From a virus (Duplodnaviria; Heunggongvirae; Uroviricota; Caudoviricetes), in the IMG/VR virus record IMGVR_UViG_3300029570_000316: DNA of 64,000 bases. One strand, 5' to 3'. Below are positions 1,796 through 44,164 of the stretch, in pieces. A model generated the notes under the pieces. The model was not told the origin of the DNA. It ran no database searches and was given only the letters and a program-made list of their open reading frames with translations. Both the position numbers and the translations under genes were made by a program. The number at the start of each line of letters is the position of its first letter. Position 1 is the first letter of the stretch.

Positions 1796-3000
1796 TATAA
1801 TTTTGCTTTAAAGTTGTAAATTGGTTTAATAACATCTATCACATCAACCGTAGGTTTTATTAGCTCAACAATCTCTTCTGTTGATTTATATGCCATAGGT
1901 GCTTCGTCAATCGTCTCTTCGCATACAGAACTAGAATAGATGCCATTCATTTCATTCTTGTAAGAATCCATAGATAACTCTTTCTTCGCTTGCGTACGAG
2001 ACATCAATCTACCTGCTCCATGTGGGGCTGAGCATAACCATTCCTTGTTTCCTTTTCCCTTGCAGATAAGAGAACCATCACGCATATTCATTGGGATAAT
2101 GACTACCTCATCCTTTTTTGCACTGATAGCTCCCTTTCGCAATATACCCTTGTCTGTATCTATATAGTTGTGAATGGTTGTAAAAGAATACTTATCTGAA
2201 TTAGCATCAATATCTACACCTAAAGCATTTACAAGTCTGTTGGCGATAATCATTCTGTTTCGTTCAGCATATTTTTGAACTATGCGCATATCATTGAGGT
2301 AGTCATTGAGCAAATCACCTTCCAAGTAAGAAAGTTCCTTGCTTATATTTTTAGTACCTAATGACTTAATAACACTCTGTATCTCATTTTCTCTGCCTTC
2401 GCTTTTTAGCTTGGCAATAACCTCAGACTTATCAGCTATTTTCTTACGGCAATACTCGTAGGCAAGTTTTTGGTAATAGTTGCATACCCTAACACCAAGG
2501 TTTCTACTTCCTGTATGTATCACAAGAAACTTCTCTCCTTCTTCATTTGCATCTAACTCAATAAAGTGATTGCCACCGCCAAGACTTCCAACAGAACGAT
2601 ATACTATTTCCATGCTGTCAAGACAATCCCAAGCACGGAATTTGCCAAACATACAACCATCAACCAATCCGTTTATGCAGGCTGATACTTCTCCCTCGTT
2701 GACATTAAAACCAGACGGAATCAACTTATTGACTGCTTCATCAAATTTCTGCAAGTCAATATCAACTTTACCAAGTCTTACGACTTTCATGCCGCAGCCT
2801 ATATCTACTCCAACAGTGTTAGGAACTACTCTGTTATCAAGCTCTATTACCGTGCCAATAGTGCATCCTTTACCTGCATGGCAATCTGGCATTATTCTTA
2901 TTTTACAACTATTGTAAGCCTCGCTATTAGATAGGGTTTCTATCTGTTTGATAGCTTCATCTTCTATTGTCTTTGCGAAAATCTTTGTAAACTCATTCAT
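1795..3000 (-). CDS. rtcB: RtcB-family RNA 3'-phosphate/5'-OH ligase
   Basis: 401 aa; RtcB signature motifs seen in translation: CHAGKG, GGGNHFIE, SAPHGAGR. Confidence 0.85.
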   Translation of the reverse strand: MNEFTKIFAKTIEDEAIKQIETLSNSEAYNSCKIRIMPDCHAGKGCTIGTVIELDNRVVPNTVGVDIGCGMKVVRLGKVDIDLQKFDEAVNKLIPSGFNVNEGEVSACINGLVDGCMFGKFRAWDCLDSMEIVYRSVGSLGGGNHFIELDANEEGEKFLVIHTGSRNLGVRVCNYYQKLAYEYCRKKIADKSEVIAKLKSEGRENEIQSVIKSLGTKNISKELSYLEGDLLNDYLNDMRIVQKYAERNRMIIANRLVNALGVDIDANSDKYSFTTIHNYIDTDKGILRKGAISAKKDEVVIIPMNMRDGSLICKGKGNKEWLCSAPHGAGRLMSRTQAKKELSMDSYKNEMNGIYSSSVCEETIDEAPMAYKSTEEIVELIKPTVDVIDVIKPIYNFKAKL

Positions 3001-3173
3001 ATCTCATTTCTTTTTATTTGTTAAACTTATCGCCTTGGTGATGCGGTGGTCTTTTTTACCAACAAAACCATAGCATATTTTGTACTCAAAATCTCTTAAT
3101 CTTCTGTACCAATAATCACTTGCCGTACTTAGATGACGAGCTTGCTTCATTATCTTCTTAGCTAATCTAATCT

Positions 3174-3467
3174 TCATACACCAACTAACTTTCCAATCAA
3201 ACGATGTTCGTGCTTATCGAAAGTAATTCCATACTTGAACATTTCTTCAAAAAGCATAAGACGCTCCTCGTTGGTAGCCAACCGAGTAGATTTCTTTTTA
3301 TCCTCGGTCATTGTGAAATGAGAGCCTACCATTAAATTCTTATATTCCTTATGGAGATAAAGATAACAGAACAGATTATGATATTCTGGTTTCCAACACT
3401 TACATAACACAATCCAATTATTATTTATCACAACTATATTGCCTTCAGCAACAATATCTTCAAACAT
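3174..3467 (-). CDS. hypothetical protein
   Basis: 97-aa minus ORF. Confidence 0.4.
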   Translation of the reverse strand: MFEDIVAEGNIVVINNNWIVLCKCWKPEYHNLFCYLYLHKEYKNLMVGSHFTMTEDKKKSTRLATNEERLMLFEEMFKYGITFDKHEHRLIGKLVGV

Positions 3468-3482
3468 ATTATTTTCTATACG

Positions 3483-3716
3483 CTACTTCTTTTTACGACA
3501 AGGGCAACTCTCAGCGTGGATAACGCAAACACCATGTTTCGTGTCCACAACCAGATAATCGTGTCCTTCCTCTGTGAATACTGACATACCAATCTTCTTT
3601 GCAGGTTCATTGCTATTAGCCAAAGAGCGAATGCCCTCAAAAATCAATGCTCCTACAAACAAACACAAGACAAACCAAACGGCTGACTTAATTAAGTTTA
3701 AAATCTTATTCTTCAT
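3483..3716 (-). CDS. small membrane protein
   Basis: 77 aa; N-terminal hydrophobic helix (VWFVLCLFVGALIF); stop-start junction TAGCGTATG. Confidence 0.4.
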   Translation of the reverse strand: MKNKILNLIKSAVWFVLCLFVGALIFEGIRSLANSNEPAKKIGMSVFTEEGHDYLVVDTKHGVCVIHAESCPCRKKK

Positions 3717-3722
3717 ACGCTA

Positions 3723-3980
3723 CTATTTCTTTCCGTAATACTTCTCTGATAAGCCGTTGAATCGCTCATAGTTCGGCAACTTGGGAGAGATTTCAAACTT
3801 CATCGTTGTAACATCATATCCTCTATCAGTCATTTCTTTGACAAACTCTTTGGTGAAGACCTTATCGAAAAGATAATGAGCATCTGTTTGAGTCATAAAC
3901 CCTAGAGGATGATAAGCACCAATGCAGTTCTCTTTCTTATCCCAATATGCCGTTAGCTTATCTTTCTTTTTAAGAATCAT
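3723..3980 (-). CDS. hypothetical protein
   Basis: 85 aa; ends in tandem TAG TAG. Confidence 0.4.
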   Translation of the reverse strand: MILKKKDKLTAYWDKKENCIGAYHPLGFMTQTDAHYLFDKVFTKEFVKEMTDRGYDVTTMKFEISPKLPNYERFNGLSEKYYGKK

Positions 3981-3983
3981 ACG

Positions 3984-4352
3984 CTACTTCTTTTTATCGA
4001 ATTTATTACCAACAATTGACCATTCAGAACAGTGAACAATAGCTGTAAAAGAAAAATTAATATTCCCAGTAACATCTGAACATTTAAAACCACATAAAGA
4101 ATCATCCCATTTTACTGTGGCTACCCTTTCAAAGTGTGGGCTACTTATAATATCACCTTCCCAAATCTCATTTCCTTCACAATCTTTCAACCCTGTGAAC
4201 ATACAGACTGTAGAAGGGTCAACGTCAGTTATACCATCTTTTATATGGTCTCCTCCTATACATACCCTATTCCCAAGACGTACTAAATCGCCCTCAAACC
4301 ATTTTCCTGAGTTGAGCTGCTTAGCCTTGAATTTTATGTTTTTTATTTTCAT
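3984..4352 (-). CDS. YopX-like phage protein
   Basis: 122 aa; motif TVCMFTGLKDCEGNEIWEGDII resembles the YopX family core (C.FTGL.D.NG..I.EGDI). Confidence 0.5.
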   Translation of the reverse strand: MKIKNIKFKAKQLNSGKWFEGDLVRLGNRVCIGGDHIKDGITDVDPSTVCMFTGLKDCEGNEIWEGDIISSPHFERVATVKWDDSLCGFKCSDVTGNINFSFTAIVHCSEWSIVGNKFDKKK

Positions 4353-34444: not shown

Positions 34445-37400
34445 TTACAATCTACTCATCTTATCTTTCAATTCGTGTATATCATTGAATGCTTGCAACA
34501 TAGGCTTATGCCAACGCTCTTGTCGCTCATCAATCGACTGCAAGTACATTAAGCTTTGTGCAAGGATAGTCCTACCCTCATCAACAGCTAACCAAATGTT
34601 ACCTACATTACCCATTATAGTATTCACGCTAGCTGTTAGTAAGCTACTCTCTGCGCCACCATCACGAGCCGCAATAGCATCCAACTTGGTATTTATGAGC
34701 TTTGTTTCCTCATACGTTCCCTCTGTTGCAATTTGTACCGCAGTGAAACGACCATTCAACTCTTCTCCAGTATCTTGGCTCATTGATTCAAAAGAACCGG
34801 AAGAAGCGGACTGCTCGTAAGATTGCTTGTAGCCCGTTATTTCGGCTACTTCATCTCTAATCTTCAGTCCTTCTTGAACCATTTCATCATACTTTCCCTT
34901 CAAGGCAGTTATATCTGTCTTTGACAATTTACCACCATTTGCCTCAGCTCGTTCCGCCCATTCGTCATAGAATGCTTGCATATCATTTCCCAACAAATCA
35001 TCCACCTTAGCTTTCAGAACGGCTTGCATAAGCATCTTGGAGAAATTATCAGAGAAGTCTTGAGCAGAGGAATTCATATCCATCAAAGTATCTATGAACT
35101 CGCTCTTCAAACTATCAAAAGATATTTGCGTCAAGCTTTCTGCAAGGTCATCAGCAATTTCCTCTAATGTTCCAGCCTCAGCCGCATAGTCTTTCAACTT
35201 TTCAAGAACTCTACCTCCATAGCCACCCTTACCTGTATTCTTGATAGCCTCAACCATATCTGGATTCTGCAAAATGGCAGCTGCTTCATCAGCAGATTGC
35301 AAGTCGTTAAGATTACCATTCCATTGTCTGCCTATTGCATCGGACACCTTTTTGATTTGCTCTTGCGAAAATCCTCGGAAATAAGCGTTAAAACTGTGAT
35401 GAGAGCCATGATAACCCATTTGCGCCTCCATGATACTCTTTAAATTTTGTTCTTTCTCCTTTTGGAGGTTTTCGGCTTTTTTAGCATCCTCTACGGCTTT
35501 AATACCACTATTCTTGTCTATGGAGTCTCGTAACTTGTCTATAGCATCCGTCAAGATTTCATTTCTATCCGTCAATTTATCTATAGTCCGGTTTACTTCT
35601 TTTGCGTTTCCACCAACTCCAAACAAACTATTGAAGCCACCAAACGATATTGTATTGAGAATATTACCAATACCGCTTATCAAAGACCCTCCTATCTGTG
35701 TGATAAAATCACCACTTAGGATATTCTTCAAGATTCCACTTATAGCATTAAAAACAGTGTCAAGAAGGTTGCTAATCAAAGTTCCAATACCATCTTTCAA
35801 AACATCAAGTATCTTCAAGATGGCAGATACGATTTGACCTATAAATCCAGCTTGTGATAATCCTTCGCTTAGAGCTTTTCCTGCATCCTTTCCAGCATCT
35901 GCGGCTGCATCTGCGGCTTCCTTGCCCATATCCTTCAGACCATCTGCCGCTTTCTTAGCCTCACTCAAAGCTTTCAATCCGTCAATTCCACCTTTAAGTT
36001 GATCGAAACTATCCCAAAGAGCTTCCAAATCAGATAATCCGGAATTTGAAAGGAACTCATGGATAGCGGAAATCGGTTGCGTCACATTCTGTGTCGTTAG
36101 AGCCAACTTCTGACCACTAGTACGAACTTTTGTGTTAGCCGTAACAATCTTCTTTCCGGACTCCGCTAACTGGCCTTGAACTTTATTCAAGTCTTCTTGT
36201 AGCCTTGTTTGCTCAGCAACATTACCCGACTTTTTCGCATTCGCTATCTGATTTTGTAAATCCTTAATGCGAGGTATAAGCTTGGTTTCCGTTTCCGTAT
36301 ATTCATCTTGAGCAATTTTCGCATTCTTCAGAGCCTCTTGATAAGCTACAACGTCCCTTGCAAGGTCTTTCCAACCTAAATCACTTGTATTACCAATCGA
36401 ATTACGGATATTCTGCATAGCATCAACGATATTCTTCTGCTGGTCTGCTCCCAAATTTTGGAACTTATCCGTACCTACGAACTTATCCAGATCTGCCAAT
36501 AAAGGAACAAGCGCATCTTTCATAATGCCACCAACATTTCCGAAGACTTGATACCAGTCTATCTTCTGCATAATAGCACTAGCCTCAACCGAATCCGTCT
36601 CTTTCTTCTGCTCTTCTTTCAAAGACTTTATCTTCCATTGCTTGCTTGAGTCCGAATCCGTAGAGTTTTCAACCTCGCTAATCCTCTTAGCATAATCGGC
36701 AGCAATAGCTAACTTCTGCTCCTGGAATGTGCCATAAGTCTTCAGATAATCGTACATGCTTTGCGCTTCTTTAGCAAGCACATCCTCATTCTGCTTTACC
36801 GCCTTATCCCGAATTGCATTCATCTGATTAGCAACACTCATGCCTATGGTCATATTCATACCATTGACCTTAACCGGATTACCCTTGCTATCCTTCATGG
36901 TTTCATTCAAAACCTCATTCTTATACTCTTCATCGGTTTTGCTCTGTTTCCACATATTAGCCTTACGACCCTTGCCGGAATTAACCCAAACAGCTTGGTC
37001 ACGCTTTTTCCTAGCCTCAACCAATTTGTCTATACCATCTTCTACCGCTTTTTTCTCCTTGTCGGCATTCTCCGTTATCTGAGCCAATTCCTTGCTATAG
37101 CCCTCATTCATCGCATTGATGCGGTTCTTGGTCATATCTTGGATAGCTTTCTCCGAATAGGATGAAATAGACTTGAAATAGTCCTCCTCAGCCTTCTTGC
37201 GTTCATACGCTCTTGCTTGTGGGTCATCCGTTGCACCTGTTTTCTTAGGTGTAGTCTTGGTTGTGTTTGATATTGTTCTACCATTCTTATTTGCATTTCT
37301 TTTGTCTAGTTCCCATTTTGCTAATTGTGCATCATTGAAACTTTGTTGTTGATTTCTAAATACACCATTTGTTTTAAGAATTAAATTACGTCCATGATGC

Positions 37401-40400
37401 GTTTTCTTATAATCACCTTGTGTTTTGGTGTCTCGTAATCTTCTATTCAATAAGTCTTTCAACTGTGAATCTGTCATTGACTTCATCCAAGATGGAATTT
37501 TACTATCATCAACGTTAATTAGTAAATTCAATCCATAAGTTCGACTCCAAACACTAATAAGTTGTTCCGTCGAAGAAGTTAATTCGTCTATGGACATCTT
37601 ATTCCGCTTATTTACCCAATTATTTCGAGCTTGTGTATTACTCCAATCAACTCCTTTTAAGATTACATTGTTTACCGCTTCTTCGGCTCTCTTATAACTA
37701 TCTTTCAACGAAATTACAGAATCAACATGACGCAAAATAGAACTCTTCAAACTTGCTAACTGAAAACTATTGTATCCCATTTTTTTTCCCCATTCTTCAA
37801 ATGGTACTAACATCGAGCGAAGAGCGGTATCATAGTCTTGTGCCGCCTTTGCATATTCTAAAGTTCCCTTTGTGGCATCATCCATACTTTTCTTTAATGA
37901 GCCAATCTTTTCTATCGTACTATCGGGTACAATCTGTTTAAACATCATTTGAACAGCAGATATATCTTCCTTCTTGATATGTTGTCCAAAATCCAACCAA
38001 CTTCCACCTAAATCATCCGCAAACTTATCGTCTAAAGATTTGCGTGCCTCTTCATATTTGGAAGCTATGGACATCAAGGCATTTGCCCTCTCTCTCTCAT
38101 CATTTTCCAATTGTAATGATGCAGTAAATTCATCGTGCTTGTTTTTTAAAGTTTCTAAATTTTCCTTTTCACCATCACATTTAACACCATATTGCTCATA
38201 AACACCAATAAGCTCTTCCTTTGCTTTTTTATGTGCATCGGTACTACTATCAGTATTCTTCATTACATTTAACAAGGCTTCTACCTTATTGGTAGTTAGA
38301 CTAGCCGTTTCGCCAAAATGAGAAGTATCAGCCGATATTTCTTCAGTCTCGTCTCCAAACATAGAAAATACGGAATACAAAGTTGTTCCCAGTGTTATCA
38401 ATGCACCTATTGGATTAGCAGCCATTGCCGCCCATAAACTCTTCAAGGCATTTCCACTACTTCTTACCGCACTAGAAAAAAGATTAACTACCGTAGTCGT
38501 ATATTTTGTACCTGCTGCATAAAGCGCATTTTTGACAGTGGCTGTTGTTGTCGCCAATATCCCAGCTTTCTTTGCAGTGGTATTGGAAGCTTGAGAAACA
38601 GTGTTAATATTATTTTGTATCGTAGCCTGTTGCTTACTTAAATTCTCCTTTGTTTGAGCAATCGTCTTACGTTCGCTTTCAATGGTCGAAATCTTTGTTT
38701 GAGCAGCATTCACTTGTTTTGTTGTCGTTTCCAAACGTTCTTTTGCTTCTAGCGCATTCACGGCATTACCCTCTGCATCAAAAGCTAAGTTTGCGCCACC
38801 AGCAGTTTCCTCAACCAATTTTTGAGCCTCAGCAAAGGCATCTTGGGCATCTTGCAAATCATTCAAGGCTGCTGTATATTGTCTAGCCAACTCAATATCC
38901 CTATCATCAAGATTTGATATTTTCTCCGTGGTTGTTTTCAAATCTTCTTTAAGAGATTCTATCTTTTGTTGACGAAGTTCCTCTGTCTTTCTTTTTTCTT
39001 CATCAAGCTCAATTTGGCTTTGTGCCGTTGCTTGTTGTTGAGCCTGTAAAAGTTCACGTTTCGTTTCTAGTTGGGAACGCATTTGTGCCGAAATAACGCC
39101 CTCTTGCTCGGCTGCATCTAACCTTGCCTTTACAAAATCATCGGACACAGCGGTATCTCCAACAACACTTGCCAAGTCTTGTTGTTTGCTTACTCGCTCT
39201 TGCTTTTTGTCCTTACCCATCGATTTATTGTTTGAGTTCTCCAGGTCTTGCAAACGCTTGATTTCAGCATCAATTCCCTTCATCATATCATCGGCTTGTT
39301 GCGCTTCCTCTGCTTTGCGAATAGAAGCAGCCGCCATTAATGATGCACGATAAGAACCAACGGCTACTATAGCTGTACCAATAGTTTTTATAACCTCTTG
39401 CCAATTCTCTACCATAGCAGAAATAATTGACAATCCGCTAGAGAACACGCCCTCGGATTTTTTGCCGATTTCGTTGAACATCTGCTGGATGGAGTCACCA
39501 ATATTGCTCCACTGACCCTCCAAAGTTTTTGATTGCTGTTCCATCAAGCCTCCGAAGCGTCCACCTGCTTGCGTCATGTTGGCGATAGCTTCCTTGAAGA
39601 TGTCTGATGTCACTTTACCCTTGGAAACAGACTCTTGAACCTCCGTTGTGTTTTGGTGTAAAATTTTACCCAACTCTTCTGCCAAAGGAATACCTCTACC
39701 CATGAACTGACGCAAATCCACTGTAAACATTCTTCCTTGCGAAACGGTCGTTCCATAAAGATAAACAAGGTCTCCAAGCGGAATGTTCAAGCCCGAAGCA
39801 ATGTCACCAAGCTGGACAAGGGTTTTGTTAACATCTTTCGCTTCCGTTCCGTATGCCAAAAGTTGTTTTGCACCACTCGTAACACTGGACAAATCGAAAG
39901 GCGTATGAGCTGCCGTTTGGATAAGTTCATCCATCAATTGTTTGGACTTATCCAAACTACCAAGCATGGTATTGAAAGATATTTCAAGTTGTTGGAATTG
40001 GGAACGAGTATTGAAAATACTACTTGTCAGTTGTTCAAATCCTAAACCGCCAAGCAAAGCAGCCGAAAGCATGTGAGCATCACCAGTTACCCTTTGAAAC
40101 AAGCTAGACATACCCTCTCCGGCAGTAGGAGCAGACTTCATGCGTTCTATCATTTGGTTCATGCTATCGGTCAACATATTTGTGGCATCTTTTGCCGGAT
40201 TTGCTGAACCTGCATACAAAACATACTCATTCCGCATGTTCTCCAAGGTCTGACGAGCACCGACAGCACCTCCTTCTAGGTTCTTTAATTGCGCAGTTTG
40301 ACCTGCCAAAGAACCTTTCAAATAGTCAATATTCTTCTGTAAAGAATCTATGGATGACTTATCCGTTGTAACTCCTAGAGTTAATCTCTTGTTCGTGATT

Positions 40401-40711
40401 TGCTGTTGGATTTTCTCTATTCGGTCTTTGGTAGCTTGCATTTGAAGTTCATAGCTATAAACTTCCCTTGCGGCTGCTTGCATCTTCTTATTAAACTCGG
40501 AAGACATCACGTAAGCGGCTCTTGAAGCAGCTTGTGTCAAGTCCTTTAAGCGATTGCTAGCATCCGCATATTTTTCCGTCAAATCCGCAACAATAGCTGG
40601 GTCGGTTGACTTATTGGTCTTCAACAACTCAGCCCTCAATTTCTCACACTCGGAACGAAGTTTCGTTACCTCTTCGAAATTTGCTCGAACGTCAAATCTT
40701 AATTCTGCCAT
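34445..40711 (-). CDS. tail tape-measure protein (2088 aa)
   Basis: Very long, largely alpha-helical and coiled-coil Ala/Gln/Lys/Glu-rich protein with Gly-rich stretches, typical of a tape-measure protein. Followed by a rho-independent terminator. Confidence 0.7.
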   Translation of the reverse strand: MAELRFDVRANFEEVTKLRSECEKLRAELLKTNKSTDPAIVADLTEKYADASNRLKDLTQAASRAAYVMSSEFNKKMQAAAREVYSYELQMQATKDRIEKIQQQITNKRLTLGVTTDKSSIDSLQKNIDYLKGSLAGQTAQLKNLEGGAVGARQTLENMRNEYVLYAGSANPAKDATNMLTDSMNQMIERMKSAPTAGEGMSSLFQRVTGDAHMLSAALLGGLGFEQLTSSIFNTRSQFQQLEISFNTMLGSLDKSKQLMDELIQTAAHTPFDLSSVTSGAKQLLAYGTEAKDVNKTLVQLGDIASGLNIPLGDLVYLYGTTVSQGRMFTVDLRQFMGRGIPLAEELGKILHQNTTEVQESVSKGKVTSDIFKEAIANMTQAGGRFGGLMEQQSKTLEGQWSNIGDSIQQMFNEIGKKSEGVFSSGLSIISAMVENWQEVIKTIGTAIVAVGSYRASLMAAASIRKAEEAQQADDMMKGIDAEIKRLQDLENSNNKSMGKDKKQERVSKQQDLASVVGDTAVSDDFVKARLDAAEQEGVISAQMRSQLETKRELLQAQQQATAQSQIELDEEKRKTEELRQQKIESLKEDLKTTTEKISNLDDRDIELARQYTAALNDLQDAQDAFAEAQKLVEETAGGANLAFDAEGNAVNALEAKERLETTTKQVNAAQTKISTIESERKTIAQTKENLSKQQATIQNNINTVSQASNTTAKKAGILATTTATVKNALYAAGTKYTTTVVNLFSSAVRSSGNALKSLWAAMAANPIGALITLGTTLYSVFSMFGDETEEISADTSHFGETASLTTNKVEALLNVMKNTDSSTDAHKKAKEELIGVYEQYGVKCDGEKENLETLKNKHDEFTASLQLENDERERANALMSIASKYEEARKSLDDKFADDLGGSWLDFGQHIKKEDISAVQMMFKQIVPDSTIEKIGSLKKSMDDATKGTLEYAKAAQDYDTALRSMLVPFEEWGKKMGYNSFQLASLKSSILRHVDSVISLKDSYKRAEEAVNNVILKGVDWSNTQARNNWVNKRNKMSIDELTSSTEQLISVWSRTYGLNLLINVDDSKIPSWMKSMTDSQLKDLLNRRLRDTKTQGDYKKTHHGRNLILKTNGVFRNQQQSFNDAQLAKWELDKRNANKNGRTISNTTKTTPKKTGATDDPQARAYERKKAEEDYFKSISSYSEKAIQDMTKNRINAMNEGYSKELAQITENADKEKKAVEDGIDKLVEARKKRDQAVWVNSGKGRKANMWKQSKTDEEYKNEVLNETMKDSKGNPVKVNGMNMTIGMSVANQMNAIRDKAVKQNEDVLAKEAQSMYDYLKTYGTFQEQKLAIAADYAKRISEVENSTDSDSSKQWKIKSLKEEQKKETDSVEASAIMQKIDWYQVFGNVGGIMKDALVPLLADLDKFVGTDKFQNLGADQQKNIVDAMQNIRNSIGNTSDLGWKDLARDVVAYQEALKNAKIAQDEYTETETKLIPRIKDLQNQIANAKKSGNVAEQTRLQEDLNKVQGQLAESGKKIVTANTKVRTSGQKLALTTQNVTQPISAIHEFLSNSGLSDLEALWDSFDQLKGGIDGLKALSEAKKAADGLKDMGKEAADAAADAGKDAGKALSEGLSQAGFIGQIVSAILKILDVLKDGIGTLISNLLDTVFNAISGILKNILSGDFITQIGGSLISGIGNILNTISFGGFNSLFGVGGNAKEVNRTIDKLTDRNEILTDAIDKLRDSIDKNSGIKAVEDAKKAENLQKEKEQNLKSIMEAQMGYHGSHHSFNAYFRGFSQEQIKKVSDAIGRQWNGNLNDLQSADEAAAILQNPDMVEAIKNTGKGGYGGRVLEKLKDYAAEAGTLEEIADDLAESLTQISFDSLKSEFIDTLMDMNSSAQDFSDNFSKMLMQAVLKAKVDDLLGNDMQAFYDEWAERAEANGGKLSKTDITALKGKYDEMVQEGLKIRDEVAEITGYKQSYEQSASSGSFESMSQDTGEELNGRFTAVQIATEGTYEETKLINTKLDAIAARDGGAESSLLTASVNTIMGNVGNIWLAVDEGRTILAQSLMYLQSIDERQERWHKPMLQAFNDIHELKDKMSRL

Positions 40712-40891: not shown

Positions 40892-41296
40892 TCAAATCAC
40901 GACAGCCTGTAATTCTTTTGAAATTCCATGTAAGCAATCAAGAATTTGCTGCTTACGTTTTTTGCTAGGCTCATGGATTCCCATTGCATACTGACGCATC
41001 AGAGAAGCATTAATGCCAGCTTTCTTTGCGACACCATTTATATTCAGATATGAAAAATAATCGAAGAAAGAACCTATATCATACCGGAACTCAAACACCA
41101 ATTCAGGCATTTGCTTTCCCTCTTCTTCAAGAAGCTCTTTAATCTCTTCCTTTGCTACAAAAATATCATCCATCGCTTGTTTTGCAGAGTTGCCAAATCC
41201 GACTAGATGGAAGTCTGGAAATTTATCCACCATATAGCAAGAAAAATTCTTTTCTTCTTTACACTTTTCTACTTGTATAATTACCTTTGTTGCCAT
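40892..41296 (-). CDS. hicB: HicB-family antitoxin
   Basis: 134 aa immediately downstream of the HicA-like gene; size and arrangement match canonical hicA-hicB. Confidence 0.55.
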   Translation of the reverse strand: MATKVIIQVEKCKEEKNFSCYMVDKFPDFHLVGFGNSAKQAMDDIFVAKEEIKELLEEEGKQMPELVFEFRYDIGSFFDYFSYLNINGVAKKAGINASLMRQYAMGIHEPSKKRKQQILDCLHGISKELQAVVI

Positions 41297-41373
41297 AATT
41301 CCGATTCTAAACTTTAAAAAGAGGTCTTAAACTCATATCAACTTCTTGCTATATAAGCGAAAAATTGCTGGGC

Positions 41374-41562
41374 TTAAAGCCCAAGCAATCTTTCAAGAAT
41401 ACTGTCGTAAGTCTTTCGAGAAACTTCACGACTGCCGTGCCGTGGCACTGGACATTTAAGTTTTGTTGTTGGACTAAACCAAATGTCGTGATTACCACCA
41501 TGCCGAACCACATAGCAACCTGCTTGGGTCAGCTTTCTCACTAATTGACTAGTCTTCATCAT
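41374..41562 (-). CDS. hicA: HicA-family toxin (mRNA interferase)
   Basis: 62 aa; ...RHGGNHDIWFSP...PVPRHG... matches the HicA/YcfA consensus (GSHxxF...P.H). Confidence 0.7.
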   Translation of the reverse strand: MMKTSQLVRKLTQAGCYVVRHGGNHDIWFSPTTKLKCPVPRHGSREVSRKTYDSILERLLGL

Positions 41563-41616
41563 ATATAATAGAAGAAATTAATAAATAAGTAAAAGACCTC
41601 TTTTGTCCTTAAGACA

Positions 41617-41627
41617 ATGCAAAGATA
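41617..41627 (-). promoter_or_regulatory. -7 promoter motif upstream of hicA
   Basis: ATGCAAAGATA about 55 nt upstream of the hicA start. Confidence 0.45.
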
Positions 41628-41690
41628 TAACTTTTTTGTTATATATGCAAATAAAAGGATAACTTTTTTGTTATATTAACCTCAATTAAC

Positions 41691-41719
41691 AAAAAAAGAG
41701 CCACCCCGAAGGATGGCTC
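41691..41719 (-). terminator. rho-independent terminator
   Basis: Minus sense GAGCCATCC-TTCG-GGGTGGCTC followed by T7; lies downstream of the 41813..42283 gene. Confidence 0.6.
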
Positions 41720-41729
41720 ACTTTACTTT

Positions 41730-41810
41730 ACTATACTAAACAGTTCTATACTGGGCTTCGCTGCACAACACTATACTGCGCTGTACTGGACAACACTTAA
41801 CTAAACTGCC
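41730..41810. repeat. iteron-like direct repeats (CTATACTG core, 4 copies)
   Basis: ACTATACTAAACAG, TTCTATACTGGGC, CACTATACTGCGC, GCTGTACTGGAC, plus AACTAAACTG. Confidence 0.45.
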
Positions 41811-41812
41811 CT

Positions 41813-42283
41813 TTATTTAAAATTAGCAAATACATCACGAACCTTTGCAAGTTTCGCCAATGTATCGTAATACTTAGATTGTTCTTCCATAGGCAAAGGT
41901 CGTACATTGTTTATGATGTCAGCACCTTGCTTTAATGCCTTCTTGATGTCGCTCATCATTTGGTCGTAGCCGTAATTGGCTTGCTCGTTGCCAGGAACAA
42001 TCACGTAGCCATTGCCCCAAACATTACGAAGGCAACATTGCTTATTTTTCAACATGTCCTCACGCAATTTTTCAACCATTGCCATGTACGTAAATTGCTG
42101 TAATTGGATAGCCTCAATATAAGCATCTACATCCTTATCATAATCTTCAAAAGCAAGTTTTGGTAAACCCAACTTCTCTTTGAGCCACTTATGTGGAATA
42201 AGCTGACCTTCTTCAAAGCTAGCTATTAGCTCTTCTTCGAACGCTCCTAGCACTTCATTTGTTAATTCCTTTACACTTTCCAT
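41813..42283 (-). CDS. hypothetical protein
   Basis: ORF trimmed to the internal Met (MESVKELT...), because the N-terminal extension of 41813..42364 reads through a tRNA-like mini-helix. Confidence 0.45.
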   Translation of the reverse strand: MESVKELTNEVLGAFEEELIASFEEGQLIPHKWLKEKLGLPKLAFEDYDKDVDAYIEAIQLQQFTYMAMVEKLREDMLKNKQCCLRNVWGNGYVIVPGNEQANYGYDQMMSDIKKALKQGADIINNVRPLPMEEQSKYYDTLAKLAKVRDVFANFK

Positions 42284-42302
42284 AATCGTTATTTTAACTT
42301 TG

Positions 42303-42345
42303 TTCTCTGTCAAGGATTCGAACCTTGATGAATACCATACAGAGA
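42303..42345 (-). ncRNA. tRNA-like mini-helix (acceptor stem + T arm only)
   Basis: Minus sense TCTCTGT-ATGGTATTCAT-CAAGG-TTCGAAT-CCTTG-ACAGAGA-A: 7-bp acceptor-like stem and canonical T arm, no D or anticodon arms. Confidence 0.35.
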
Positions 42346-42360
42346 AACCCTTTACCACAC

Positions 42361-42424
42361 TCAACTAAACTATACTGTACTTCACTGAACTATACTAGAC
42401 TAAACTTTACTGAACTAAACGATA
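42361..42424. repeat. degenerate ~21-nt tandem direct repeats (iteron-like; ACTATACTG / AACTAAAC core)
   Basis: TCAACTAAACTATACTGTACT / TCACTGAACTATACTAGACTA / AACTTTACTGAACTAAACGAT; related copies at 41730-41810. Confidence 0.5.
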
Positions 42425-42434
42425 AATATCTAGC

Positions 42435-42476
42435 TCCCCACAGAAGAATCGAACTTCTACTAGCACCATGTGGGGA
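42435..42476 (-). ncRNA. second tRNA-like mini-helix
   Basis: Minus sense TCCCCAC-ATGGTGCTAGT-AGAAG-TTCGATT-CTTCT-GTGGGGA: same architecture as 42303..42345. Confidence 0.35.
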
Positions 42477-42483
42477 TAACCAA

Positions 42484-43056
42484 CTATTTCATCACCTTTG
42501 CTTCAAACTTTCCATACATTGCTCGGAATGTGCCTAAATGGTATCTAAGACCAGCAACCTCGAACAACTTAACAATTTGGTCTCGGTCTAATTGACTTTC
42601 ATCATACCAACAAGTGCATTCAGTACTCCACTCTGGGAATATCGCACGAGTAGCAAGAACCTTTGCGCCTCGAATACCAACGGCACGGCAATCTACATAA
42701 ATGCCAAGCTCGTAAAGTTGCTCAGGAGTTTTGTCCGCATCCTTGAACTTCAACAAACCATCATCCATAACACCAAAAGAACGCTCAACCTTAGCACCAA
42801 GACGAATCTCTTTGGCAGCACATTTAACGGCTTGCATGATGTGCGAACTAGGAATAATGTATTCGCCCTTTGTATTCTGATACAAGGATGCCAAGAACTT
42901 CAATCGGCATATCTCCAATTGGTCTTCTTCCGTCTTTTTTCGCTTGGCAGTCAAACCGGAAATCTGCTTTGAGTAAGCATCGAAAGGAGAAACTGTTCTC
43001 GGATTATTCAACATCAATGGACTAACACCAACCAACTTAAAACTAATTGTCTTCAT
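42484..43056 (-). CDS. hypothetical protein
   Basis: 190-aa minus ORF. Confidence 0.45.
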   Translation of the reverse strand: MKTISFKLVGVSPLMLNNPRTVSPFDAYSKQISGLTAKRKKTEEDQLEICRLKFLASLYQNTKGEYIIPSSHIMQAVKCAAKEIRLGAKVERSFGVMDDGLLKFKDADKTPEQLYELGIYVDCRAVGIRGAKVLATRAIFPEWSTECTCWYDESQLDRDQIVKLFEVAGLRYHLGTFRAMYGKFEAKVMK

Positions 43057-43417
43057 ACTTTTCTTTACTTTTAAAATTAAACACGGCAGTTTTACAGGTA
43101 TGCCTCTTACCTTTGGGACAAAACAAAAGCCCCGTCCGCTTATTGTCGTGAGTAGCGAACGAGGCTAAAAGTATAGAAAAGTCCGAAGACTTCTAAATTT
43201 CTTCTTATCCCTGTAACCATGCTCACGACTTCACGGCTAAACCATTTCTGATTTCGTTTGCAAAGGTAAGCATAATTTCTGAAACACGCAAATTATTTAG
43301 TGTATTTCTTTATTCTTTTAAACTTTATTTTCTTTTAGAAACTTATTTTTAATATTACACCTTATTGTATTATAGCTCTTGCAATGTACCAAACAAACCA
43401 TTTCTAAACTAAAACTG

Positions 43418-44164
43418 TTAATATCCTAAGTTTACGACACTCCAAGAGCCATCACTATTCTTCTTGACAACACCATGCAAATCAACGAATTTCTTCTGAC
43501 CACCATAGGTTGAACGTAAAGAATAAGAAACAGTGACCTCACGTCCACTAACGCTTTCTTTCTTCACCTTGAACACATTGGAGCTTTCCGCACCTACGGA
43601 ACTTGTAGCATTGCTAACATTCCACTCTTTTTGAAGAGCATCCTCTATTGAATACAGGTCTTCATCCGAAACATACACATCGGTCTCACTAGAAGAACTG
43701 ATAGCATTTGCTTTTTCGTATTCTCTTGGGTCTTCACGCTTCCCATCTCTCACGATATATACATAATGACATGATTTCAAGTCTTTCACTATCAACGATT
43801 CCAAATTCCAATCTTTAGGATTCCTATAAGGAATTGAGACTTTCATATCATACGCAAATTTCCCATTTTTTCCTTCCACAACACCCTCTACAGTTCCTTT
43901 ATCACTAAAGCTACCTTTCTGATCATTATAACCCTTATTGTTATAAAACTGACTATCAATCACCTTATAGCTTTTGCCAAAATATTTTTTTAAAACCAAG
44001 TCACGTTTTGGCATACAGGAATCCTTGGAAATAGCTCGTATTTCATGTTGTTCCCACTCTTCAACTATCATCTTGTCTCTTTCAGAGGCAACCTTTATTG
44101 CGTAACCACAAATGGCAACAATTACTACAATAATGGCTACGTAAGCTATTTTCTTCATAATCAC
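43418..44164 (-). CDS. secreted/membrane-anchored protein
   Basis: 248 aa; N-terminal signal-anchor MIMKKIAYVAIIVVIVAICGYA. Confidence 0.5.
   Translation of the reverse strand: MIMKKIAYVAIIVVIVAICGYAIKVASERDKMIVEEWEQHEIRAISKDSCMPKRDLVLKKYFGKSYKVIDSQFYNNKGYNDQKGSFSDKGTVEGVVEGKNGKFAYDMKVSIPYRNPKDWNLESLIVKDLKSCHYVYIVRDGKREDPREYEKANAISSSSETDVYVSDEDLYSIEDALQKEWNVSNATSSVGAESSNVFKVKKESVSGREVTVSYSLRSTYGGQKKFVDLHGVVKKNSDGSWSVVNLGY

Follow-up and report, generated by a model that had tools for sequence, protein, structure and literature searches.

A candidate VIPR operon with AGU-type guide arrays and tRNA-like mini-helices in a Caudoviricetes genome

Layout of the locus

The stretch of DNA analysed here (the window) comprises 64,000 nucleotides (nt) of a virus of the class Caudoviricetes (IMG/VR virus record IMGVR_UViG_3300029570_000316). 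Its positions 41,720 to 42,483 had been singled out in an original prediction for two tRNA-like mini-helices and short direct repeats around one small gene. According to the list of open reading frames (ORFs) of the window, every gene around this region is located on the minus strand, and read in this direction the operon has the order vipr, mini-helix B, tract R2, mini-helix A, vap, tract R1 and terminator. The original prediction missed the effector gene immediately upstream, and we read the repeats as guide RNAs of a VIPR (Viral Interference Programmable Repeat) system. We estimate a probability of about 85% that this region encodes the RNAs of a type II-like VIPR operon, with guides, targets and mini-helix roles as proposed below; that it is a VIPR locus with functional guide tracts appears, judged from the sequence, nearly certain. 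The features of the locus are as follows (aa, amino acids; NN, the two variable bases of a repeat unit).

43056..42484, minus strand: vipr gene (190 aa), by Vipr profile homology predicted to encode an RNA-guided, filament-forming RAMP protein
42476..42434, minus strand: mini-helix B, directly after the vipr stop codon and before tract R2, recognized by sequence and covariation
42421..42346, minus strand: guide tract R2 (vrRNA) of 14-15 AGU-NN pentamers
42345..42303, minus strand: mini-helix A, following R2 past AGGGUU and ending 19 nt before the vap start codon
42283..41813, minus strand: vap1-like gene (156 aa), identified by BLASTP homology, true start ATG 42283 (MESVKELT)
41812..41718, minus strand: guide tract R1 (vrRNA) of 18-19 pentamers (AGY/UGU-NN) in the vap 3' untranslated region (3'UTR)
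41719..41691, minus strand: intrinsic terminator, GAGCCAUCC-UUCG-GGGUGGCUC-U7, predicted to end the operon and to form the 3' end of the R1 vrRNA
40486..40437, minus strand: site in the phage's own tape-measure gene targeted by a rival guide (L007 type), 32/34 NN match

VIPR was reported in April-June 2026 as a system for RNA-guided DNA recognition with a non-contiguous code and was proposed as an ancestor of the CRISPR backbone proteins (bioRxiv 10.64898/2026.04.26.720920 and 10.64898/2026.04.26.720927). As laid out in the preprint text, it consists of a minimal RAMP protein, Vipr, a vap accessory gene, and vrRNAs of 9-16 pentamers (GGY plus hypervariable NN) with an invariant structured tail (bioRxiv 10.64898/2026.04.26.720920). 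Vipr is described to polymerise on the RNA with one protomer per pentamer, so that the trinucleotide is hidden and NN is presented (bioRxiv 10.64898/2026.04.26.720920, 10.64898/2026.04.26.720927). The NN bases pair with double-stranded DNA, every third target base being skipped, and competing phages are transcriptionally silenced (bioRxiv 10.64898/2026.04.26.720920).

The layout shown above is identical in all of 21 IMG/VR relatives, in which the enclosed gene is 85-98% identical to that of the window. The terminator hairpin is kept in 21/21, and the 123-nt 3'UTR segment that includes it (41690-41812) has a folding z of -3.9. A blastn search against GenBank phages yielded a sole match, a 135-nt stretch in an unannotated faecal phage. 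Distant phages in which variable-spacer arrays are located beside different mini-helices encode homologues of both flanking genes (34-58% and 35% identity). Using a profile of the Vipr family, 80 loci were retrieved.

The repeats are phased pentamer arrays

Read in phase on the minus strand, R2 has the sequence AGUUC AGUAA AGUUU AGUCU AGUAU AGUUC AGUGA AGUAC AGUAU AGUUU AGUUG AGUGU GGUAA AGG. It contains 12/12 consecutive AGUNN units plus degenerate units on the flanks, and its NN string is TT TC AA TT CT AT TC GA AC AT TT TG GT AA (GT). R1 comprises 18-19 units, in which the fixed positions are AG in 16 and UG in 3. Elsewhere in the 64 kb, on either strand, the best in-phase occurrence of AGT is 3/12. 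In the repeat consensus, A occupies position 1 in 84% of the units and U position 3 in 90%, with G at position 2. R1 and R2 are 70% identical over 71 nt because they share the AGU frame and nothing else. In the 21 relatives the tracts occur in at least 10 unrelated sequence versions, each of which keeps the NN-AGU period, and the arrays differ totally among phages that are 95-98% identical in the flanking genes. The phase is constant and the spacers vary; therefore, selection acts on three phased bases, and the two spacer bases are hypervariable. Both tracts thus consist of tandem pentamers with a constant trinucleotide and a hypervariable NN, as in vrRNAs.

The original prediction had described these repeats as iteron-like, 8-9 nt long and present in 3-5 copies. 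The repeats proved real and, as that prediction demanded, occur in related phages, with the phase kept in the 21 relatives; the proposed unit and copy number did not hold, as the repeats form period-5 arrays on the minus strand with 14-15 and 18-19 units. Each tract is followed by a structured 3' element, mini-helix A in the case of R2 and the terminator hairpin in the case of R1, both differing from the pseudoknot of the SUSP1 clade. The arrays themselves are unstructured in single-sequence folding (z = -0.22), which fits a protein-bound guide.

A scan of viral contigs with the pattern (AGTNN)x8 mostly returned plain microsatellites, and the informative matches were variable-spacer arrays beside vipr homologues. 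Several of the retrieved loci carry arrays of other forms. Directly after vipr, loci L182-L201 (Vipr 46-50% identical) carry tandem AGY-NN arrays, up to ten in number and about 12 nt apart; position 3 is C as commonly as U, mini-helices are absent, and some loci have opposite-strand arrays. These tandem arrays may correspond to a 'staggered' or another array architecture. L130 contains about 124 AGTNN pentamers in a single block (2622-3243). In L070, at least five arrays (minus strand, about 3480-4150 in reverse-complement coordinates) follow a vap-like gene, and the conserved spacer of about 70 nt between them contains a hairpin that is not a mini-helix. In L058, an array (1-85) is located just upstream of the terminase large-subunit gene.

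The flanking genes encode homologues of Vipr and Vap1

The family profile of the 190-aa protein matched PDB 36pp_D, 'SUSP1 Vipr protein', over its full length (1-189; E=1.8e-46). The single-sequence search against SUSP1 Vipr gave an E of 8.4e-21, and the two proteins are about 27% identical. An AlphaFold model of the window Vipr (mean predicted local distance difference test score, pLDDT, 93.5) matched Csm3/Cas7 RAMP backbone proteins with a probability of 1.0. The protein corresponds to PHROG 4652; a Pfam search returned no family for either the 190-aa or the 156-aa protein. We concluded that the gene upstream of the arrays encodes a minimal RAMP protein homologous to the characterised Vipr.

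By BLASTP, the 156-aa gene has homologues in the genes that follow vipr in Felixounavirus HY02 (E=2.8e-13) and in Pseudomonas LESphi2 (E=6.3e-14), and its product corresponds to PHROG 5926. The Vipr proteins of HY02 and SUSP1 are identical in 185/190 positions, and it is because of this homology to the HY02 gene that we refer to the locus as type II-like and to the gene as vap1-like. The gene adjacent to the arrays thus appears to be a vap accessory gene. Its homologues are likewise 156 aa long and start with MESVKELT. The 27-codon N-terminal extension of the listed ORF (41813..42364), which runs over mini-helix A, is therefore spurious, and the original prediction was right to trim this ORF; the start is at ATG 42283.

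The trinucleotide of the window arrays is AGU and not the GGY of the published vrRNAs. The methods section of the preprint admits 'YNNNG' and other related repeat consensuses (bioRxiv 10.64898/2026.04.26.720920); therefore, the AGU repeat represents a variant and not an exclusion from VIPR, and an AGY-type consensus is probably within what the preprint authors saw. According to the description of the SUSP1 Vipr structure, G1 is read by H17 and D177, G2 by R138 and W178, and Y3 by R179 and its neighbours (bioRxiv 10.64898/2026.04.26.720927). R138, R179 and an aromatic residue at the W178 equivalent were conserved in our comparison of Vipr proteins, and the window Vipr retains R137, F177 and R178. 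Its G1 contacts are N17 and T176, corresponding to H17N and D177T relative to SUSP1. Across the 80 loci, repeat position 1 is G in 82-100% where Vipr has H17 and D/E176, mixed (G 44-83%, A 12-38%) with H17 and T176, and A in 70-100% with N17 and T176. Exceptions to this pattern are L192 and L202, which have much U at position 1. The replacement of both G1-reading residues (H17 to N, D177 to T) would explain the occurrence of AGU in place of GGY; the correlation between residue and base is one that we infer in this analysis.

The spacer bases match genes of competing phages

The NN strings of 34 distinct arrays were scanned with 0, 1 or 2 wildcards over the window and all fetched loci, and outliers appeared with the 1-nt skip only. 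In sibling phages, R1 matched the tape-measure gene of the 'MAQLEFNI' allele on its antisense strand. At L114 4591-4643 (site TTATATGTGCCTACGGCTACCGCAGCCGAGCCAATAACTTTA...) the score was 28/36 for the whole guide and 26/28 when counted over repeats 1-14. With the L001 version it rose to 30/36, and across versions the first 14 repeats scored 26-27/28. Skips of 0 or 2 yielded 22-23, and shuffling the order of the NN units a maximum of 25 (of 36).

A rival 3'UTR guide, the L007 type carried by siblings, matched the 'MAELRFDV' tape-measure allele, which includes the window's own gene (34445-40711, minus strand). At 40486..40437 this guide matched in 32/34 positions with 15 consecutive perfect repeats (codons KMQAAAREVYSYELQ), compared to 22 with a skip of 0 or 2 and a maximum of 24 (of 34) in order shuffles. 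The carriers of the L007-type guide are themselves without the site, with scores of 22-24/34.

For R2, the best match was 26/30 with 12 consecutive perfect repeats (skip 0 or 2, 22; order shuffles, maximum 24 of 30), at one site common to L226, L228, L229 and L231, four loci retrieved by a pattern already requiring 10 perfect repeats. This site is on the antisense strand of an ORFan gene (200 aa) that lies immediately upstream of the tape-measure gene. These four contigs share 68-82% nucleotide identity with the window phage in several segments, and no vipr or arrays were found in them. The metagenome scan for R2 had returned nine loci, five at chance level (20-25/30) and the four sharing this site, and a scan of a genome collection for guide targets gave two chance-level matches only (21-23/30). 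The exact 10-repeat target patterns of R1 and R2 had 0 matches each in IMG/VR.

The bases skipped by each of the three guides are codon wobble positions in the target, as is stated for natural VIPR targets in the preprint (bioRxiv 10.64898/2026.04.26.720920). A scan of the window for self-targets returned none, apart from the arrays themselves at skip 3. Likewise, no self-targeting carriers occurred among the loci scanned; L010, L015 and L016, which have both the R1 guide and the targeted allele, have a diverged site (21-25/36). Thus, the NN bases match competing elements by the 1-nt-skip rule, without self-targets. R1 is aimed at the tape-measure gene of siblings with the other allele, and R2 at the 200-aa gene beside the tape-measure gene of relatives lacking VIPR. 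This pattern indicates reciprocal inter-phage interference among siblings.

The same data bear on two further explanations of the repeats. The original prediction had offered an iteron-based replication origin, and the region is indeed A+T-rich and dense in short direct repeats. Origins of this type have near-identical repeats of about 17-22 bp and an initiator gene, whereas the unit found here is 5 nt long with 3 conserved bases, and Pfam/PHROG annotation revealed no adjacent initiator gene, the neighbours being vipr, vap and hicAB. In addition, the arrays are strand-specific and wholly different in sequence between phages with 95-98% identical flanking genes, their variable dinucleotides spell sites in genes of rival phages under the 1-nt skip, and a homologue of the effector Vipr adjoins. 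Origin iterons, or any other array of protein-binding sites on double-stranded DNA, are thus highly improbable.

The second explanation, which was the first hypothesis of this analysis, takes the arrays as binding sites of a TRAP-like ring protein that regulates vap translation or termination. The trp leader bound by TRAP contains 11 (G/U)AG repeats, triplets with 2-nt spacers, one per protein subunit, and the period and geometry of the arrays, with (N)AG triplets and 2-nt spacers, resemble this arrangement. No TRAP-like gene was found, however, and the adjacent protein is Vipr, which is unrelated to TRAP and documented to bind such pentamers, one per protomer. Moreover, the spacers carry information and match target DNA, which a pure protein-binding site does not predict. 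The hypothesis was dropped after the Vipr profile match, and we now give it only a very slim chance.

The mini-helices are conserved, covarying tRNA-like structures

On the minus strand, mini-helix B reads UCCCCAC AUGGUGCUAGU AGAAG UUCGAUU CUUCU GUGGGGA G (discriminator G) and mini-helix A reads UCUCUGU AUGGUAUUCAU CAAGG UUCGAAU CCUUG ACAGAGA A (discriminator A at 42303). Both have a 7-bp acceptor stem, an 11-nt linker starting with AUGGU, a 5-bp T stem, a 7-nt T loop and one discriminator base. Position and architecture agree with the original prediction, now read on the minus strand and with covariation over 25 versions. Neither mini-helix was called as a tRNA by ARAGORN or Rfam; an Rfam E-value search of 41000-43500 and a search of the whole window at gathering thresholds returned noise and five known tRNAs only. 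The D arm and the anticodon arm of a tRNA gene are missing, and a linker of 7-15 nt stands in for both. Single-sequence folding was weakly better than that of shuffles (z = -2.35 and -1.42).

From related loci, 25 distinct mini-helix versions were aligned. With the caveat that the detector required acceptor/T-stem geometry, base pairing occurred in 95.9% of the alignment cells, double changes in 93 cells compared to 22.8 in shuffles and in 11/12 pairs, and the covariation score was 0.859 compared to 0.226, with 0/500 shuffles reaching it. Slid registers paired in about 50%. All 25 versions have G:C as the closing pair, which corresponds to G53:C61; conservation of the T-loop columns GTT.GA..C (loop of the UUCGAWU type) is complete or 90% and above, and a GG is present in the linker of nearly every version. 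The mini-helices are thus conserved, covarying RNA structures with the acceptor/T-arm geometry of tRNA. With stems, T loop and GG linker kept, the 'top half' of a tRNA is preserved in them, and an elbow contact is possible. A covariance model gave mini-helix B a score of 56.3 bits, and its matches to both mini-helices are circular because both sequences are members of the model; beyond these, the only matches in the window were weak ones to the T arms of the phage's real tRNAs. An encoded CCA is absent from all 25 versions. The 3' trailers (N73-C-A/U-A) are similar to the trailers of the five tRNA genes of the phage, in which CCA is likewise not encoded.

In the sub-clade nearest to the window (Vipr about 49-100% identical), an array is followed by a mini-helix within about 7-18 nt in 40/41 loci. 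The mini-helices, 1-4 per locus, are without exception encoded on the strand of vipr. The order of arrays (A) and mini-helices (M) is A-M-A-M, or M-A-M-A in the window lineage, L181 and L192. Across the 21 close relatives of the window the mini-helices are almost invariant. This includes mini-helix B, even though it has no array in front of it in this lineage, and its conservation argues for a processing or boundary role. Outside the sub-clade, loci whose Vipr is 46-50% identical have long tandem arrays without mini-helices, and the GGY clades, including the SUSP1 clade (HY02 tails examined), have hairpin/pseudoknot tails. tRNA is nowhere mentioned in the text, legends and supplement of the VIPR preprint, whose authors may have seen such elements unnamed. 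Searches of the literature on pentanucleotide repeats and on mini-helices resembling tRNA in phages yielded nothing relevant.

One close relative, L012, has an extra 19-unit array (2680-2775) upstream of mini-helix B, where the window has none, which suggests that arrays are gained and lost as cassettes of array plus mini-helix.

The original prediction had also considered tRNA 3'-half remnants that mark an attP core, and the T arms are indeed canonical and resemble those of the phage's own tRNAs. The mini-helices, however, have both acceptor strands, and occur in 1-4 copies per locus, always co-oriented with vipr and beside arrays. They are tied to vipr and not to an integrase (no integrase search of the window was made) and lie inside a transcription unit closed by a terminator. 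Compensatory changes in 11/12 pairs across lineages of quite different sequence are not expected of decaying remnants. We therefore consider an attP origin extremely unlikely. The remaining proposal, that the tRNA-like structures serve as processing or priming signals, fits best: the acceptor/T-arm half is kept and covaries, and the elements are on the transcribed strand within the operon and flank or follow the arrays in 40/41 sub-clade loci. It is the processing role that we develop below, reasoning from context.

Proposed mechanism and points that weigh against it

In the proposed mechanism, Vipr protomers would sequester AGU and present NN; the concatenated NN would pair with double-stranded target DNA, and the filament would block transcription. 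The guides must be excised because the arrays are embedded in the vipr-vap mRNA. Acceptor/T-arm mini-helices are minimal substrates of RNase P and RNase Z. The mini-helices probably recruit host RNase P at the 5' end and, at the 3' end, RNase Z, which would cut after the discriminator, together with the CCA-adding enzyme; the GG-containing linker could form a tRNA elbow with the T loop. Cleavage would define the guide ends and separate the vipr and vap mRNAs, and a retained mini-helix may also act as a structured 3' cap, like the pseudoknot in SUSP1 vrRNAs. That the mini-helices are RNase P/RNase Z processing signals for the guides is, by analogy, a little more probable than an even chance.

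Alternatively, the mini-helices could be retained structural 3' tails that have replaced the pseudoknot and provide a filament cap, a register or protection from exonucleases, their tRNA likeness conferring stability or CCA-tagging without being a cleavage signal. A mini-helix follows each array at a short, fairly constant distance, as does the pseudoknot tail of about 40 nt after the SUSP1 repeats, and its linker GGU resembles the repeat trinucleotide. In the cryo-electron microscopy structures, as presented in the preprints, the pseudoknot caps the 3' end (bioRxiv VIPR preprints). A role as tail only is, however, less easily reconciled with mini-helix B, conserved in the window and 21 relatives without an array in front, and with L181 and L192, which also begin with a mini-helix. 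R1 ends in an ordinary terminator hairpin, and an enzyme would still be needed to cut between the units inside the mRNA. We regard a tail-only role as possible but rather unlikely.

Several points weigh against the interpretation of the locus as an AGU-type VIPR with mini-helix-processed guides. The change GGY>AGY is among the SUSP1 guide mutations whose perturbation abolished silencing, according to the preprint text (bioRxiv VIPR preprints); therefore, the function of AGU here depends on the inferred change in protein specificity. Over its whole length the window R1 reaches 78% with its best target, with mismatches in the last four repeats and in two of the internal dinucleotides, and the published threshold for natural VIPR targets is at least 80% (bioRxiv VIPR preprints). 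For R2, given how its target loci were retrieved, the independent evidence is the extension only, that is, two more perfect repeats, the wobble phase and the relatedness of the contigs. In loci of the L148 type no mini-helix occurs before the first array; therefore, definition of the 5' end cannot always depend on a mini-helix. The tail of R1 is a plain terminator hairpin, which suffices, so that the tRNA shape is not required for guide function. Finally, the processing by RNase P and RNase Z is deduced from context, and the VIPR papers are preprints.

Taken together, we consider it an even bet that this sub-clade replaced pseudoknot tails or ribozyme spacers with 43-nt acceptor/T-arm mimics that yield host-matured guides, that H17N and D177T re-specified GGY to AGU, and that siblings silence each other's tape-measure alleles.

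Neighbouring features and host

Upstream of vipr, a leader of about 190 nt holds hairpins, and a candidate Bacteroidetes promoter is located about 200 nt upstream of the gene (43261-43292, minus strand; TTTG, 20 nt, TAccTTTG). A metagenome-assembled genome (MAG) of the Muribaculaceae encodes a Vipr that is 63% identical to that of the window (P0014). The promoter-consensus match and the MAG Vipr suggest a member of the Bacteroidales as host.

Between the VIPR operon and the tape-measure gene, a hicA toxin gene (Pfam HicA_toxin, E=1.3e-12) and a hicB-like gene are located at 40892-41562 on the minus strand. In the relatives the hicAB allele is another one (45% and 35% aa identity). Two exact copies of the 18-nt palindromic motif ATAACTTTTTTGTTATAT occur upstream of hicAB, at 41627-41676, and are probably its operator.

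One of the five clustered tRNA genes of the phage, at 26921-26995 on the minus strand, has an 8-nt anticodon loop (CUAUGCAA). ARAGORN reported it as 'tRNA-???' with the 4-nt anticodon atgc, and its Rfam tRNA score is 59.6 bits. A tRNA that decodes quadruplets or suppresses frameshifts is conceivable, as is an odd Met/Ile tRNA.

Comparison with known systems

The closest characterised systems are the type II VIPR of Escherichia phage SUSP1 and of a Pseudomonas fulva prophage (bioRxiv 10.64898/2026.04.26.720920, 10.64898/2026.04.26.720927). They have in common with the window locus the homologous Vipr and Vap1, vrRNAs built of 9-19 pentamers, in which three bases are conserved and two hypervariable, and a structured element 3' of each tract. 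Also shared are targets matched with the 1-nt skip only, on either strand, in competing phages and with wobble skips, and the lack of self-targets. In contrast, GGY is found there and AGU here, matching H17N and D177T; the tails are hairpins or pseudoknots there and tRNA-like mini-helices or a terminator here. The arrays flank the genes there, whereas here they are located between vipr and vap and in the vap 3'UTR. The targets are satellite or prophage regulators there and sibling tape-measure alleles here. The host of the window phage differs as well, a Bacteroidales member being suggested.

Among the array forms listed in the preprint are pseudoknot-tailed, staggered, single and hammerhead-interspersed arrays (bioRxiv 10.64898/2026.04.26.720920). 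The hammerhead-interspersed arrays of types I and V, going by the legend of fig. S19 (bioRxiv 10.64898/2026.04.26.720920), likewise have a conserved structured RNA between guide tracts with an evident role in cutting the transcript. There the spacer is self-cleaving, whereas the tRNA mimic here would depend on host RNase P and RNase Z. With the Cas7/Csm3 filaments of class 1 CRISPR systems, VIPR shares the fold, one protomer per fixed RNA step and the thumb-induced flipping of bases. It is without a repeat-spacer array, Cas6, Cas5, the large subunit and adaptation genes, and its guide is non-contiguous, 2 of every 5 nt being paired.

tRNA-punctuated processing occurs in engineered polycistronic arrays of tRNAs and guide RNAs (tRNA-gRNA), plant mitochondrial t-elements, MALAT1/mascRNA and the tRNA-miRNA transcripts of MHV68. 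These also place tRNA or tRNA-like modules between functional RNAs, which are released there by RNase P and RNase Z. The arrangement described here differs in being natural, in a phage, built on a 43-nt acceptor/T-arm unit with a 7-15-nt linker, and coupled to DNA-binding guides; the cleavage is predicted.

Implications

The kind of system is known, and the window represents a variant in four respects: tRNA-like punctuation and tails, AGU with matching protein substitutions, arrays inside the operon, and reciprocal targeting of tape-measure genes. The first, second and fourth of these appear new. tRNA-like punctuation is a candidate for a host-dependent route of VIPR guide maturation. If true, the locus would be a natural counterpart of the engineered tRNA-gRNA arrays, with a vrRNA architecture that the VIPR preprints, in their text, legends and supplement, do not describe. 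The proposed switch in specificity, AGU with N17/T176 and GGY with H17/D176, is supported by co-variation over the 80 loci and, if true, would provide orthogonal pairs of Vipr and guide usable for multiplexed programmable repression. VIPR appears to be abundant in phages of the human gut, with Bacteroidales suggested as hosts, which the preprint text does not mention. The guide-target pairs provide an example of reciprocal warfare in which near-identical gut phages aim at a structural late gene, the tape measure, and not at regulators of lysis and lysogeny.

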